64,000 bases of DNA, from assembly GCA_016198685.1 (NCBI GenBank), contig JACQID010000006.1, positions 192,001-256,000 of the forward strand, in the 5' to 3' direction. Shown here one piece after another: positions 3,114 to 62,825 of the stretch. The notes beneath the pieces are model-generated. The model saw nothing but the letters and a program-made list of their open reading frames with translations. It was not told the DNA's origin and made no database searches. A program made the position numbers and the translations under genes. The DNA is from Candidatus Aenigmatarchaeota archaeon. Lineage in GTDB: Archaea; Aenigmatarchaeota; Aenigmatarchaeia; GW2011-AR5. How positions within the stretch are numbered: position 1 is the stretch's first letter; the number at the start of each line of letters is the position of its first letter.

Positions 3114-3248
3114 GGGCTGGTAGATCAACGGAAGATCGCCTGCTTTGCAACGCAAGAAGGGAAGTATCCCTCCTTACAGTCCTATTCAACTCTCGGACGA
3201 TGCGAACAAAACAGCAGGAGGCTTCGGGTTCAAATCCCGACCAGTCCA
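3114..3248 (+). tRNA. tRNA-Ala(UGC) with 63-nt intron at 37/38 (3150-3212)
   Basis: Acceptor GGGCTGG/CCAGTCC-A with G3.U70; anticodon stem CCTGC/GCAGG; T-loop TTCAAAT; relaxed BHB TTTG/CAAA. Confidence 0.93.
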
Positions 3249-3551: not shown

Positions 3552-3585
3552 AGGCGACCACAGGTCCGAAATAAAGATAGCTAGC
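3552..3585 (+). other. 5' strand of 23S pre-rRNA processing stem with BHB
   Basis: AGGCGACCACAGGTCCGAAAT (3552-3572) pairs with ATTTCGGGCCTGTGGTCGCCT (6779-6799). AAAG-ATA-GCTAGC pairs with GCTAGC-CTTT-AAA (6729-6741) as a BHB. Confidence 0.85.
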
Positions 3586-5815
3586 TCCCACGCTATTTGG
3601 TGGATGGCTTGGCTTGGTAGCTGACGAAGGTCGTGGCAAGCTGCGATAAGCTCGGGGTAGGCGCATGCAGCCTTTGAACCCGAGATTACCTAATGTCGCA
3701 TAGACGTCAATTCACGGGCAACTGTGAAGAGCAACGGGGAGAATTGAAACATCTTAGTAACCCCAGGAAGAGAAAGCAATCGCGATGCCGTTAGTAAGGG
3801 CGACTGAAAGCGGCACAGGACAAACCGAATCTGTCCCGTAAGGAGACAGAGATGTGGAGTTTGGACCTGGGCTACTCCTATCCGTATATTTCGAAGTTCC
3901 CTGGAAAGGGACGCGACAAAGGGTGAAAGCCCCGTAGAAGGAAAACGGAGGAGGATACCGGGTATCCAGAGTACGATTGGCCGGATAGCCAGTCGGAATA
4001 CGGGTCTCATCTAGATCCAATCCTAAACACTAACCAAGTCCGATAGTGAATTAGTACTGCGAAGGAACGTTGAAAAGAATCCGTGACAGGATTTGAAAAG
4101 AGCCTGAAACCATGTAGCTATAGTTTGACGGTTAAGGCTCTCGCAAGAGAGAAGAACCCGTCGTCCGTTTGGAAAAACGGGGCAGGGAGTTATCTTCTAT
4201 GGCAAGCTTAACCGCATTAAGCGGGGAGGCGGAGCGAAAGCGAGTCTGAAAGGGCGACTAGTCATAGGAGTTAGACTTGATGCCAGATGATCTAGGCCTG
4301 GGTAGGATGAAGCCCCGCGAAAGCGGGGTCGAGGTCCGTAACCGGATTTAGCACTACCTAACCGGGTGACCTGGGTCTAGGGGTGAAAAGCCAATCGAAT
4401 CTGGCAGTAGCGGGTTCCTCCCGAAATGTATGTGAGTACAGCCTGGCAATGAGTGCGGATGGGGTAGAGCACTGATTAGACTGTCGAGGGGAGAAATCCC
4501 CAGCAGTTTTGTCAAACTCCGAATCCATCCGTATATGTGCCGGAGTGAGGGTGTCGGAGTAATTTTGGCATCCGAAAGGGAAAGAACCCTGACCAAAGCT
4601 AAGGTCCCTAATTAGAAACTAAGTGTATCGAAAGTTGTCTTGAACCTTAGACAGAGGGAAGGTTGGCTTAGAAGCAGCCATCCTCCAAGCAACGCGTAAT
4701 AGCGGACCCTCCGAGGTTCAGGGCGCTGAAAATGGACGGGGCTAAGTTTCTAACCGATACTTTGGAGCCTGCGCAAGCAGGTTGGTAGGGAGGCATACCG
4801 CGAGGGCAGAAGCTTCTCCGTGAGGAGGGGTGGACCTCGCGGCATAGAAAATCCTGCCGGGAGTAGCAAATGAGTTGGGTGAAAAACCCAACCGCCTAAA
4901 GAGCAAGGGTTCCCCAGTAAAGTTTATCTGCTGGGGGTTAGTCGGTCCTAACTGCACCCTTAAGAAGAGGTGTGGGAAAGGGAATCCGGTTAATATTCCG
5001 GAACCGAGCAGCAATGCACTTTTGGAAAAATTTCAGGACAGCCTGACCATTGCCGTCGCAATGGCGAAGCGTCGAAGCTTGAGGAGTCTCGTAATGAGGA
5101 GAATTAAGTGAAGGCGTTACAGGATCCCTGTATTGGGGTTTTAGGCCATTCCTGGAGTCCATGAAAAGCCAGAAGATTAGAGTGCTGCCGTCCGTACCGA
5201 GAACCGACACCGGTGCTCGCGCTGAGAAGGCGAAGGCGTACAGGAGAATCCAAACCTAGGGAATTCGGCAAAATAGTGGGGTATCTTTGGTAGAACCCAT
5301 GCCTGCCCAGTGATTGGGCAGGTCGCAGTAACAAGAGGGATCCGACTGTTTAACAAAAACGTATCTGGCTGCTAAATCGAAAGGTCTTGTATAGCCAGTG
5401 AGTCGTGGCCACTAGTGGTGTGTTAAAGCTGGTTTCAACCGGCCCAAGCCCCGCTGTAGGCCGGCCCTAACTCTGAGGGTCTTAAGGTAGCGTAATCCCT
5501 TGCCAACTAATTATTGGCCTGCATGATAGATTCACGAGATCTCTGCTGTCCCGGGGCGGAACCTGGCGAAACTATTGTTCTGGTGATTAGGCCAGAGACC
5601 TCTAGTGGGAAGAGTAGACCCCGTTGAGCTTTACTGCAGCTTGTTGTTGTGGTATAGATCTGGGTGTATAGCGTAAGCAGGAGACGTCGAAGCCTGCCCG
5701 AAAGGGTGGGTGGAGTCGCCAATGTAACACTGCTCATCTGGATCTATACAGCTTACCCGCGAGGGGACAGCAGCAGGCGGGCAGTTTGGCTGGGGCGGTA
5801 CGCCTTTGAAAAGAT

Positions 5816-5859
5816 ATCGAGCATAGCGTCGTATTAATCCTCGCGATGCTCGGCTTAAT
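5816..5859 (+). other. 23S rRNA BHB-like mini-intron (44 nt)
   Basis: Removal restores GCCTTTGAAAAGATATCAAAGGC. Bulges ATA(5814-5816) and ATA(5858-5860); central helix AAAG/CTTA with one mismatch; inner helix TCGAGCAT/ATGCTCGG. Confidence 0.85.
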
Positions 5860-6066
5860 ATCAAAGGCCCTCTATGGTCAGCTCATCCGGGTCAGAAATC
5901 CGGAGATAGAATGTAAGGGTAAAAGCTGGCTTTATTGGACTTCGAAAAGCAAGATGTCCAATTGCGAAAGCATGACCTAGCGAAACGCAGTTCGGCCTAG
6001 ATGGCCGGCTGTGACTTGAGAAAAGCTACCTCGGGGATAATGGTGTCGTAGCGGGCGAGAGTTCTC

Positions 6067-6333
6067 ATCCGTATTGCGGTATCTAGTCTACATTAACCAC
6101 AAAGAAAAGAAAGCACTTAGCTGTCTTTATTAGGACAAGATATAGGCACGGCATTATTTGAGAATGCAAATTCTTGGATAATGCCAAAAACTTCTGGACT
6201 AACCAAGTGGCAGATGGCTGTGAAGGAACACTGTCCCAGAGCGAGTCCTCGAAAGGCTTACGTCTTTCGCAGGGCAATGAGCGCAATCGGTAGCTTCCGA
6301 GCCAATGTAAAAAATCTGCAGTGCGGAGAACAG
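6067..6333 (+). other. 23S rRNA BHB intron (267 nt), H89 loop, no homing endonuclease
   Basis: Removal restores GAGAGTTCTC-ATCGACCCCGC. Perfect BHB: GTTC(6061-6064)/GAAC(6328-6331), bulges TCA and AGA, 12-bp inner helix TCCGTATTGCGG/CTGCAGTGCGGA. Confidence 0.93.
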
Positions 6334-6728
6334 ATCGACCCCGCGTGTTGCGGCGTCGCTGTCGGCTGGCCCTCTCCTGGCTGCGCAGCAGCAGCCAAGG
6401 GTGACGGAGTTCACGTATTAAAAGGGCACCTTAGTTGGGTTCAGAACGGCGCGAGCCAGTTTGGTCTATATCTGCTAGAGGTGTTGCTGCCTGAGAGGAA
6501 GGAAGGATAAGTACGAAAGGAACATCCTTCCGTGGCCACTTGTTCACCAGCTGTCCGACAGGGCAAGCTGGGTAGCTACGCCATACGCTGATAAGGCCTG
6601 AAAGCATCTAAGGCCTAAGCAGCTCTCAAAAATAGGTAGTAGGCAACCGGCAAGACTACCGGTCATGGAAGCGGGATGTACGCACGAAGCTTCGGCGACG
6701 TGTTCAGTCCACGCTCTCCTACGCCAAT

Positions 6729-6799
6729 GCTAGCCTTTAAAACGGAAAAGTTGCGGCTTTTTCGTCCCGCTTGACGGGATTTCGGGCCTGTGGTCGCCT
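6729..6799 (+). other. 3' strand of 23S processing stem
   Basis: Complementary to 3552-3585, with two small hairpins inserted; followed by a T-rich tract. Confidence 0.8.
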
Positions 6800-15948: not shown

Positions 15949-16188
15949 TTAAATTTCAATGCTTGTCATGTACCTAATGGAGCGGCCGAGCCTATAAGCA
16001 GGCTTTGCAACTTTTTCCAGAAACCTTGAAAACCTGGCGGCTCGGTCGGGATTCTCGGGCCAGAAGTCCTTTGCAATGGATTCGGCATTGTAAGATTTTT
16101 TTGCGGTGAGCCCCCTCTGGAAATTAGAGATGGGAGTGCAGATAGGAGCTTGGGTATAGAAGGTAATGTAGGCTCCCATATCAGCCAT
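15949..16188 (-). CDS. hypothetical protein
   Basis: Fills the gap between histone and GT2; start uncertain. Confidence 0.45.
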   Translation of the reverse strand: MADMGAYITFYTQAPICTPISNFQRGLTAKKSYNAESIAKDFWPENPDRAARFSRFLEKVAKPAYRLGRSIRYMTSIEI

Positions 16189-16210
16189 CAAATCAACGAA
16201 GGGATACAAC

Positions 16211-16405
16211 CTATTTAGAGGCAAACTCAACATCCTCTTTTTTGACAGTACGCCGGCCGGCATGTTCACAGAGCTTCACAGCGCTTGCTGCGATGGAAGA
16301 ACCATATTCTTCGGTCAAATCCCGGAGCTCAGCGGCGGCTTCTCTTGCCATCCTCTTGGCGCCGGCCTTTTTGGCAAGTTTTTCGAACGGCAACATCGGT
16401 AACAT
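16211..16405 (-). CDS. archaeal histone
   Basis: LP..PFEKLAKKAGAKR...A......EHAGRRTVKKEDV histone fold. Confidence 0.93.
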   Translation of the reverse strand: MLPMLPFEKLAKKAGAKRMAREAAAELRDLTEEYGSSIAASAVKLCEHAGRRTVKKEDVEFASK

Positions 16406-16556: not shown

Positions 16557-17492
16557 GTGATGATAATGGCAATTAGTAAATGTCCGGAATGCGGTTCAAC
16601 CAAATTCTATAATGATCCCGACCGCGCAGAGAAGACCTGCGCCAAATGCGGGATGGTAATAGAAGGAAATATTATAGATGTAGGTCAGGAATGGCGTGCT
16701 TTCGACTATGAACAGAAAGTCAAGCGCGCAAGAACAGGCGCTCCACTGACGCACAAGAGGCATGATAAAGGCCTTACTACAGAAATAGGAAAAGGTTCTA
16801 CTGAATTGTTCAAAGTTCCTGCAAAGAAAAGAGGGCAGTTCTTCAGGATAAGGAAATGGCAGAAGAGACTGCTCACAAGCAAGGACAGGAACATGTCTTT
16901 TGCAATGAGCGAACTGCAGAGGCTTGTTTCTTACTTAGGGTTGCCTAAGACGTTGCATGAAGAAGTTGCAAAGCTCTATGAGAAGGCGCTTCAGAAAGGC
17001 CTTGTCAGGGGAAGATCTATAGAAAGCATAATAGCTGCTCTTGTATATTCGCTTTCCAGAGAGTACCATACTCCAAGAACGTTGACTGAAATCTCCCAAG
17101 CTTCCGGTATAGGCAAGCGTGAGCTGGGAAGAACATACAGATACATTTCAAGAAAGCTTGACATAAGAATCCTGCCTGCAAGAGCCGATACATACATTCC
17201 AAGATTCTCTTCGATGCTCAAGCTCTCCGACAGGACGCAGATACATGCAATAAAGATACTCAAAGCTGCCAAGGATAAAGATGTTATTTCTGGCAAGGGG
17301 CCGACGGGGTGCGCCGCCGCCGCAATATACATCGCTTCAGTTCTCGAAGGCGAGAGGAAGACGCAGAGAGAAGTTGCCGATGTTGTAGGCGTAACAGAAG
17401 TTACAATCAGAAACCGCTACAAGGAAATGGCAGAAGCGCTCAACATAGAAGAAGAAGTCGAGAAGAAGGCCAAGGAAGAAGAAGTGAAGTAA
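16557..17492 (+). CDS. tfb: transcription initiation factor IIB
   Basis: Zn ribbon CPECG...CAKCG, GQEWRAF, RTGAP, two cyclin repeats, VTEVTIRNRYKE. Confidence 0.98.
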   Translation: MMIMAISKCPECGSTKFYNDPDRAEKTCAKCGMVIEGNIIDVGQEWRAFDYEQKVKRARTGAPLTHKRHDKGLTTEIGKGSTELFKVPAKKRGQFFRIRKWQKRLLTSKDRNMSFAMSELQRLVSYLGLPKTLHEEVAKLYEKALQKGLVRGRSIESIIAALVYSLSREYHTPRTLTEISQASGIGKRELGRTYRYISRKLDIRILPARADTYIPRFSSMLKLSDRTQIHAIKILKAAKDKDVISGKGPTGCAAAAIYIASVLEGERKTQREVADVVGVTEVTIRNRYKEMAEALNIEEEVEKKAKEEEVK

Positions 17493-18086
17493 TTATCTGA
17501 ACAACAATTCTGGGTCGTAGCCTTGTTCCTTAAGGTAATTCCTTATATCTCGCAGGCCGACTTTAACGCGCGTTCTTATTGTGCTTGCGGGGATGCCGGT
17601 TTGCCGCTGCATAGTAGAATATTTGACTCCCTGAAGATGCATAATTATTGCTTCTCTCGTGTTTTCCGGCAGGGCGTTTATGGCAGTAATTGCGGCATCG
17701 GCCGCATCCTGTACAACAATCATGCAGGTGAAATCAGGCGAGGAAGACAATGCTGCGTCAGCGTAATAGATGAACTCAGGTCGATTGCCGGGATTTCTTC
17801 CTGTGTTATGCCTTTGCTTGTCGATTGAGGCATTACGCACTATAGTGTACATCCAGCCACGGAACCCTGCTTTGTTTGAAGTGTCAAACCCTATCCGGGG
17901 CTCGTTATATACACGATGAATTTTTAGGAGAGCGTCATGCAAACACTCTTCCGAATCTTCAGGAGAAAGCCCCCTACCGACAAGATAGGAACGCAATTCA
18001 TGCGAATAATGCTGGTAAAGGTGTTCTATGACATCTTCAGGATTCTCCTTGCCGGTAAGATTTTGCAGATAAGGGTCTTGGATCAT
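17493..18086 (-). CDS. ECF-type sigma-70 family factor (regions 2 and 4)
   Basis: Region 2: LYQHYSHELRSYL..EDSEECLHDALLKI..FRGWMYTIVRNASID. Region 4: ALPENTREAIIMHLQGVKYSTMQRQTGIPASTIRTRVKVGLRDIR. Confidence 0.85.
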   Translation of the reverse strand: MIQDPYLQNLTGKENPEDVIEHLYQHYSHELRSYLVGRGLSPEDSEECLHDALLKIHRVYNEPRIGFDTSNKAGFRGWMYTIVRNASIDKQRHNTGRNPGNRPEFIYYADAALSSSPDFTCMIVVQDAADAAITAINALPENTREAIIMHLQGVKYSTMQRQTGIPASTIRTRVKVGLRDIRNYLKEQGYDPELLFR

Positions 18087-18106
18087 GATATGAGATTAGA
18101 AAAAAA

Positions 18107-18113
18107 TATTTAA
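18107..18113 (-). promoter_or_regulatory. TATA-like box upstream of sigma-like gene
   Basis: TTAAATA on the minus strand, 21-27 nt upstream of the ATG at 18086, consistent with a leaderless archaeal transcript. Confidence 0.45.
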
Positions 18114-18120
18114 GCGGGCA

Positions 18121-18984
18121 CTATTCGAGCATTCTGACGGAATCTATAGTGCCGTCGCCGTCTTCGTCGATCCCTTCGACAATGGCATAGCCTTTTTCGA
18201 GCTCCTGCTTATAGCGAAATATGGCAAGTATTGCGGCCTTTGTACCGGAATGCCTTCTGCCTGCAAGCAGGAGTATGCTGGCGTCTTTGTTAAGAGGATT
18301 TTTTGCTTTGATTAGAAATCCGACATCGTCTGATTTGTAAGTCTTTCCGGTGTATGAAGAATATATGTTGCTCCCTGCAAAACGTACAGGCAAGGAAGGG
18401 TTCACGAGTTTTGTTACCTTGTTTGTAACAGGCCCGCCCACTATTACGAGGTTATCGTTCATTTCTTCTTTGCCTATGCCTGTATCAAGCAGGACCGAAG
18501 GCGACGCATTGGCTATGCAGGAGCCGATGAAAAGCGCCAAGTCTACTGCATAATAAGCATCACGCGATCTTGCCTTCTCAGGGCCGTGGGGATCAGGGGA
18601 GCCTATGACGATCTTCGCGTTTAGAATGCCGTTTTTTATGAAAGCGGAAAGGAAGCCGGAATATGACGGAGGTCGTTCTGCCGGGACAAAATCTGCAAAG
18701 CGCATCACAAAGGCAGGCCTCGTGAGAGAATAGATTTTTGCGACAGCGCCCCCTATAGCCTCGTGCCGTTCGGCGCGGATAATTTTCATTTTCTCCATTT
18801 TCCGCATATGATAGTATATTTTCTGCTCGTCTTCTTTCAAGAAACGTGATATTTCTTTCGGATATGAAGGCTTCTTTGCAAGATGCTGAAGGATCCTTAT
18901 TGCGAGCTTTGATCGCGGAAATTCCTCAATCTCTTTCGCCGCGATCAACTCCTTTCCGTTTTTATAATCCCGTACTACGAACAT
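18121..18984 (-). CDS. ArsR-like wHTH regulator fused to S-layer-C-like domain
   Basis: ILQHLAKKPSYPKEISRFLKEDEQKIYYHMRKME wHTH; C-terminal NLVIVGGPVTNK and LLAGRRHSGTKAA. Confidence 0.75.
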   Translation of the reverse strand: MFVVRDYKNGKELIAAKEIEEFPRSKLAIRILQHLAKKPSYPKEISRFLKEDEQKIYYHMRKMEKMKIIRAERHEAIGGAVAKIYSLTRPAFVMRFADFVPAERPPSYSGFLSAFIKNGILNAKIVIGSPDPHGPEKARSRDAYYAVDLALFIGSCIANASPSVLLDTGIGKEEMNDNLVIVGGPVTNKVTKLVNPSLPVRFAGSNIYSSYTGKTYKSDDVGFLIKAKNPLNKDASILLLAGRRHSGTKAAILAIFRYKQELEKGYAIVEGIDEDGDGTIDSVRMLE

Positions 18985-62699: not shown

Positions 62700-62825
62700 C
62701 GCCGAGAGCAGGATTTGAACCTGCGCGAGCACAAGGCTCACACGCTATCGGAGGCTTCATATTTTCCATACCGGAAAAATGACCATTCCAGGCGTGCGCG
62801 TTGGACCAAGCTCCGCCATCTCGGC
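62700..62825 (-). tRNA. tRNA-Ser(GGA) with 39-nt intron (62747-62785)
   Basis: GCCGAGA/TCTCGGC-G acceptor (G73); CACGC-CTGGAA[intron]A-GCGTG; long variable arm. Confidence 0.93.

Follow-up and report, generated by a model that had tools for sequence, protein, structure and literature searches.

A genuine ECF-type sigma-70 family gene in an Aenigmatarchaeota chromosome, with a host-like promoter and an apparent record of gain and loss within one genus

What could a sigma factor do in a cell whose transcription starts with TBP and TFB? The question has stood since sigma-70 genes were reported from DPANN archaea in 2021, and it is raised again, though not answered, by a gene of Candidatus Aenigmatarchaeota archaeon located in the window analysed here (64,000 nt; C1:192001-256000 of a 275-kb contig). 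The 2021 work described sigma-70 genes (fam00359) in DPANN genomes, especially those of Woesearchaeota, excluded mis-binning as the explanation, detected no anti-sigmas and did not settle the mechanism (Castelle et al. 2021, PMC8204110). The phenomenon of sigma-70 genes without an anti-sigma in DPANN archaea is thus already published, and a bacterial sigma in an archaeon is not new.

The gene is native to the archaeal chromosome. On its contig lie the archaeal 16S rRNA (1-1189) and 23S rRNA (3576-6738) genes, a histone gene and tfb (Table 1), and the GC content across the sigma gene (0.45-0.47) equals that of its neighbours. The assembly (935 kb, 8 contigs, 93.7% complete) contains a single Rpb1_1 match (RNA polymerase large-subunit domain), which is the archaeal Rpo1N, so the genome has no bacterial core RNA polymerase; there is likewise one Sigma70_r2 match and one TFB gene. 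Four separate runs gave assemblies with the identical protein directly downstream of the HTH/S_layer_C gene, and there is no population variation among the four across the sigma gene; the DNA is present in runs SRR12113383-385 and SRR12113430. One of these run-assembly contigs (L067) covers both junctions, carrying the NTP-transferase, HTH, sigma and tfb genes, and differs from the window by six mismatches, all at the L067 contig end, inside tfb. Given the archaeal markers on the contig, the run assemblies, the matching GC and the absence of a bacterial core, we exclude an assembly chimera or mis-binned bacterial DNA, to which only a negligible probability can be given; the syntenic remnant in a related genome (G003, below) argues against such an artefact as well. 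A chimera at the junctions had been put forward as what could undo the original prediction, and the repeated junctions and the G003 remnant speak against it. That this is a real, natively located and horizontally acquired ECF-type gene is a conclusion we hold with very high confidence.

Two Rfam tRNA matches elsewhere in the window, of 135 nt (3114-3248, + strand, between the 16S and 23S rRNA genes) and 126 nt (62700-62825, - strand), went unreported by ARAGORN and are probably intron-containing tRNA genes. The 23S rRNA match (+ strand) extends over 3163 nt against a model of 2987 positions, which suggests inserted sequence. A putative 106-aa ORF with no Pfam match (15949-16269, - strand) overlaps the 3' end of the histone gene (16211-16405, - strand) by 59 nt in another frame.

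Table 1. Features of the sigma gene locus in the window, and contents of the equivalent slot between tfb and the HTH/S_layer_C gene in four congeners (G001-G004); for these slots the last column gives the DNA identity of tfb to that of the window.
Feature	Position	Strand	Details	Basis
Sigma-70 family ECF-type gene	17493..18086	-	197 aa, ATG start	ORF list, Pfam/NCBIfam, AlphaFold2/Foldseek
Stop codon of sigma gene	17493-17495	-		ORF list
Sigma-2 domain	17805..18020	-	residues 23-94	Sigma70_r2, column statistics, structural match
Sigma-4 helix-turn-helix domain	17553..17693	-	residues 132-178	Sigma70_r4_2, structural match
tfb	16557..17492	+	genome's only TFB gene; convergent, abuts sigma gene	TFIIB repeats, Zn ribbon
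Winged-HTH (HTH_20) + S_layer_C protein gene	18121..18984	-	287 aa, upstream of sigma gene	Pfam, synteny in G001-G004
Spacer, HTH/S_layer_C gene to sigma gene	18087..18120	-	34 bp; TATA box, then T7 run	sequence read
TATA box TTAAATA	18113..18107	-	starts 27 nt before ATG	sequence read, genome-wide peak
Slot in G003			192 bp with last 108 bp of sigma gene	tfb DNA identity 88%
Slot in G001			288 bp, weak nucleotide traces of sigma gene	tfb DNA identity 82%
Slot in G002			orphan ORF on tfb strand, no Pfam match, unrelated to G004 ORF	tfb DNA identity 76%
Slot in G004			another orphan ORF on tfb strand, no Pfam match	tfb DNA identity 78%

The 197-aa protein is a genuine, full-length, two-domain ECF-type member of the sigma-70 family. 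The original prediction of one ORF with both sigma-2 and sigma-4 regions was borne out: the motifs it quoted are present, and the HMMER comparison it proposed gave significant matches to both Pfam domains, Sigma70_r2 (28.6 bits, cut-off 24) and Sigma70_r4_2 (32.2 bits, cut-off 25.7). The sigma70-ECF superfamily model TIGR02937 also scored above its cut-off (46.9 bits, cut-off 42.9), and no NCBIfam equivalog model came near its own (best PRK12513, 53.8 bits against 206). The nearest solved structure by sequence is RpoE of R. sphaeroides (2q1z), with an alignment over both domains at E 4e-11. An AlphaFold2 model built from 134 sequences (mean pLDDT 86.8) consists of two helical bundles and a low-confidence linker at about residues 97-118, and every one of its top Foldseek matches in the PDB is an ECF sigma; the sigma-4 part superimposes on region 4 of E. 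coli sigmaE on -35 DNA (2h27_D; TMt 0.84, rmsd 1.1) and the sigma-2 part on region 2 of the same factor (4lup_A; TMt 0.67). The protein has the ECF architecture, with these two domains only, and at 197 aa falls within the range of group IV (~170-220 aa, without region 1.1 or sigma-3).

Column statistics against 133 relatives showed that 14 of 17 family-consensus positions are retained (E46, E47, D51, L54, W78, I82, R84, N85, D89, R92, L139, P140, T169 and R173). The three departures are Ser for A at position 45, His50 for the Gln of region 2.2 and His for W57, so that the region 2.2 motif (D/E)(D/E)xxQ(D/E) reads E46-E47-C-L-H50-D51, keeping its acidic residues with His in place of Gln. Histidine occurs at the Gln position in 10 of the 133 relatives and at position 57 in nine; a subgroup signature made of His50 and His57 was ruled out, since the two co-occur in none of the 133. 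Most sigma-like proteins of related archaea retain the consensus positions, the Gln included. The Pfam scores are also among the lowest of the sigma-like genes of the phylum (29.5 bits in that comparison, where others reach 85), and these low scores, together with the two histidines, make relaxed constraint possible.

The protein has no close relatives. Among 5.8 billion clusters built at 90% identity it finds itself alone, in a cluster with a single member sequence, and no intact orthologue was found in 15 billion proteins. An exhaustive HMMER search of 1.84 billion representatives returned 1893 matches at E <= 0.001, of which the best non-self match is 31% identical (E 9e-12, 61.7 bits). The two best matches lie in bacterial contexts, one of them (P0002) next to a ChrR-type Cupin_7 anti-sigma gene, and bacterial matches score up to 61.7 bits against 35 bits at most for intact sigma-like proteins of related archaea. 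A pattern scan of GTDB genomes recovered only ECF sigmas of Bacteroidota (27-31% identity). Judged from these sequence comparisons, the gene is of bacterial origin. In a tree of 88 sequences (archaeal sigma-like proteins, unlabelled best database matches and three Bacteroidota sequences), the window protein forms a long branch on a polytomy with no supported sister, so no donor lineage can be named; nor did a DPANN-wide clade that includes it, the kind of clade that the original prediction had proposed testing for, appear in that tree.

Sigma-like genes are common in the lineage, with Sigma70_r2 matches in 20 of 70 genomes of the order, 69 of 371 genomes of the phylum and 14 of 98 high-quality genomes. 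Those inspected adjoin archaeal genes (aEF-1alpha, adenylate kinase and an HVO_0163-type HTH gene). Two or three Sigma70_r2 genes stand in tandem or a few kb apart in some cases (G302:C20:14768-20369, G304:C76:450-2243, G321:C5:105444-106389 and G023:C15:17773-19333 [L009]), and some of these genes occupy open frames 395-842 aa long, a hint that they are fused to further domains.

The identity of TFB is clear from its TFIIB repeats (E 5e-41) and Zn ribbon (E 5.8e-16) in Pfam, the only two TFIIB matches in the genome being the two repeats of this one gene, and the stop codons of the two genes do abut at 17492/17493, as had been noted. The meaning given to this tail-to-tail arrangement did not survive a wider comparison: of ~105 sigma-like matches spread over 69 genomes of the phylum, that of the window genome (G000) alone lies next to tfb, TFIIB repeats were found in 60 of the 69, and the only other case of a sigma-like gene and tfb on the same contig has them 33 kb apart. 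A meaningful linkage to tfb was rejected as non-recurrent in this sample, and by this comparison the two genes are neighbours by accident, through the place where the sigma gene inserted. Separately, the second cyclin repeat of TFB (17350-17430, residues 265-290) gives a sub-threshold match to Sigma70_r4, scoring 20.7 bits where the cut-off is 24.1 (E 3e-4); it reflects the known resemblance of the helix-turn-helices and is no evidence of a link to the sigma gene.

No anti-sigma gene lies beside the sigma gene, whose flanks are tfb and the HTH_20/S_layer_C gene; among ECF sigmas a cognate anti-sigma, as a rule co-transcribed, is typical though not universal. The original prediction was correct in this respect, and the absence extends across the genome, where no zf-HC2 match was found and Cupin_7 gave one match, below its cut-off and on another contig. 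The 287-aa product of the upstream gene pairs an N-terminal HTH_20 domain with an S_layer_C "outer domain", an odd combination of DNA-binding and surface-layer parts; it is kept in all four congeners searched, at dN/dS of about 0.07-0.09.

Within 5 kb either side, the sigma gene has housekeeping neighbours (glycosyltransferase, histone, tfb, NTP transferase and GlmS), with no integrase or transposase. These surroundings bear on the proposal that the protein is an effector aimed at the RNA polymerase of a bacterium that serves as partner or host, or else belongs to a virus or mobile element. An effector would suit the life of DPANN archaea, attached to other cells, and a protein that does retain the residues expected of a working bacterial sigma. 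Against these points, the structural model contains the two sigma domains only and nothing like a secretion signal, the neighbourhood is of the housekeeping kind described, a single-protein scan of IMG/VR found no viral relatives, and 50,697 phage records yielded one weak match at 25% identity. We consider an effector or mobile-element role highly unlikely.

The sigma gene has a promoter of host type upstream of it. On the coding strand, the spacer upstream of it reads GCCCGC-TTAAATA-TTTTTTCTAATCTCATATC-ATG. Across the upstream regions of 536 long ATG-started ORFs from this genome, TTWAWA boxes peak at -31..-26 (80 of the 536 genes, with the maximum at -29), against about two per position elsewhere, which from its position is the signature of leaderless transcripts. 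The box of the sigma gene, at -27, lies within this peak and matches the local consensus TTTAAAtatTt, so that the original reading of TTAAATA as a box at archaeal promoter distance is upheld. Upstream of the box the sequence is G/C-rich, in contrast to the A-rich stretch usual in this genome. The gene thus carries the promoter geometry of its host, with no ECF-type autoregulated promoter evident, and we infer that the T7 run following the TATA box may terminate the transcript of the upstream HTH/S_layer_C gene.

Comparison with the four congeners searched, all of which keep tfb and the HTH/S_layer_C gene in synteny, suggests how the sigma gene came and went. The 108-bp remnant in G003 is 83% identical to the window gene with three 1-nt gaps, and is followed by weaker similarity with a 34-nt deletion; its translation is 66% identical over residues 124-197 (E 1.8e-11), and by this alignment the G003 copy is a frameshifted 3' stump. 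In G001, the alignment to the window takes in HTH-gene sequence, the spacer and the first ~47 nt of the sigma gene (72% identity), two tiny colinear matches are present besides, and the 50-aa ORF of that spacer gave no protein alignment to the sigma protein; a remnant is probably present here too, the gene having been lost. G004 has a different sigma-like gene on a separate contig. The interval from tfb to the HTH/S_layer_C gene (17493-18120; slots L003, L011, L012 and L013) is a spot of gene turnover, with three unrelated contents (sigma gene or remnants, and two orphan ORFs) in five species of one genus. The simplest history would have the sigma gene enter the slot before the split of G000 and G003, and before the split of G001 as well if the weak traces there are real. 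Kept in G000, lost in G003 and probably lost in G001, the gene is accessory, not core. The gene is dispensable, as the stump in G003, the probable scraps in G001 and the unrelated ORFs in G002 and G004 indicate.

This record raises the possibility that the gene is a non-functional relic, transferred into a cell with no bacterial core polymerase for it to work with and by chance still unbroken. The broken or scrap-like copies in G003 and G001, the lack of any intact orthologue, family scores among the lowest of comparable archaeal genes and the unrelated orphan ORFs that mark the slot as a turnover site all fit such a relic. Its age fits less well. Between G000 and G003, tfb has a dS of 0.75 (dN/dS 0.004) and the HTH/S_layer_C gene a dS of 0.97 (dN/dS 0.087), and the sigma gene is older than this split, whereas in a neutral simulation a 197-codon ORF stayed open in 11% of cases at d = 0.1, 2.3% at d = 0.2 and 0.3% at d = 0.4, figures for substitutions alone, with indels left out (the G003 remnant has three in 108 bp). 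Given this divergence and the low neutral survival, we infer that selection kept the ORF open during the greater part of its time in the genome. In the G003 remnant 33 codons can be compared, and the dN/dS of the sigma gene, taken from these in place of its full length, is 0.36 (dS 0.34, dN 0.12); synonymous sites of the neighbours have diverged further than the remnant has, which suggests that the G003 copy, too, was constrained for long and broke fairly recently. Constraint on the gene may have been lost recently. The 14 of 17 consensus residues retained, the host-type TATA box at canonical distance and a GC content fully like that of the host also count against a relic, and we regard it as an unlikely explanation, if one to be taken seriously. 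A singleton with relaxed selection and no expression had been named as one outcome that would refute the original prediction; orphan status was confirmed (best non-self match 31% identical), and the ORF is open where neutral survival is 0.3-11%.

If the gene was maintained, a more specific role may be asked of its sigma-2 domain. In bacteria sigma-2 docks on the beta-prime clamp helices, of which the archaeal clamp coiled coil is a homologue, and the protein could bind the Rpo1N clamp coiled coil and, by competing with TFB, TFE or Spt4/5, modulate initiation or elongation, or serve as an alternative promoter-specificity factor. The persistence of the acidic motif of region 2.2 and of the W78/R84/N85/D89/R92 block, here as in most related archaeal sigma-likes, suggests that a sigma-specific surface is constrained in cells that lack a bacterial core. 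Set against this, the region 2.2 Gln, the most conserved core-binding residue, is His in the present protein, the gene is dispensable within the genus, and no recurrent linkage to tfb or polymerase genes was seen in the phylum sample. A complex prediction for sigma-2 (residues 1-105) with Rpo1N residues 1-400 scored 0.01 against a mark of 0.32, was run with no controls and counts neither way. We judge clamp binding to be rather improbable. The broader notion of a bacterial-archaeal hybrid, in which the ECF-derived protein works with archaeal machinery (the Rpo1N clamp or TFB/TBP-bound promoters) as a sigma-like accessory specificity or regulatory factor, we hold to be quite improbable.

The explanation that we tentatively prefer, at a likelihood a little short of even, is that of a resident gene of bacterial origin whose product acts as an accessory, sigma-derived DNA-binding regulator. 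A bacterial ECF sigma gene would have been transferred into the turnover-prone slot between tfb and the HTH/S_layer_C gene and would then have gained a host TATA box at the distance usual for leaderless genes. In the G000 lineage selection would have kept it open, with deletion removing the copy in G003 and probably that in G001. The protein would bind DNA sequence-specifically through the helix-turn-helix of sigma-4, and possibly through sigma-2, modulating a few host promoters, and transcription of its gene, not an anti-sigma, would determine how active it is. In this scheme the DNA binding of an ECF sigma on its own is purely conjectural, as is any target site. Of the domesticated sigma that was first proposed, there remain a genuine ECF protein in an archaeal chromosome, the lack of an anti-sigma, a host promoter and an ORF kept open; on the other side, such genes were already published, the tfb position carries no detectable meaning, the gene is dispensable and no DPANN-wide clade includes it in the tree.

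Relative to the DPANN sigma-70 genes already known (fam00359), the window gene is alike in the archaeal marker genes on its contig, the lack of an anti-sigma and a TBP/TFB-type initiation in the cell; it differs in being an orphan, at most 31% identical to anything and apart from related archaeal sigma-likes in the tree, and in having a dated gain-loss series inside one genus. With bacterial ECF sigmas (RpoE 2q1z; sigmaE 1or7, 2h27 and 4lup; M. tuberculosis SigH 5zx2 and SigL 6dv9) it shares a length of ~200 aa, the sigma-2 and sigma-4 domains, the region 2.2 and 2.4 blocks and the 4.2 helix-turn-helix. Unlike them, it resides in a cell without an anti-sigma and without a bacterial core polymerase, so that directing such an enzyme to promoters, the defining activity of these factors, cannot take place there. 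Its promoter is of the archaeal TATA type and not an autoregulated ECF one, it belongs to no NCBIfam equivalog group and it has His for the region 2.2 Gln. The likeness to TFB is one of role in promoter specificity, TFB being the functional analogue of sigma; their folds and ancestry are unrelated, and the two genes are adjacent only in the window genome among the sample searched.

What is new here is the orphan lineage, a host promoter set against a genome-wide benchmark, the series of gain, maintenance and loss in one genus and the negative result on linkage to tfb. The locus offers a clean case, being a single-gene insertion with a host promoter and dated gain and loss, and no anti-sigma to complicate assays. 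Were the protein to prove inert, it would be a gauge of the time over which a transferred gene without use can keep an intact appearance; were binding to the archaeal RNA polymerase or to host promoters shown, this would be a rare instance of a core bacterial initiation factor re-used by an archaeal system.
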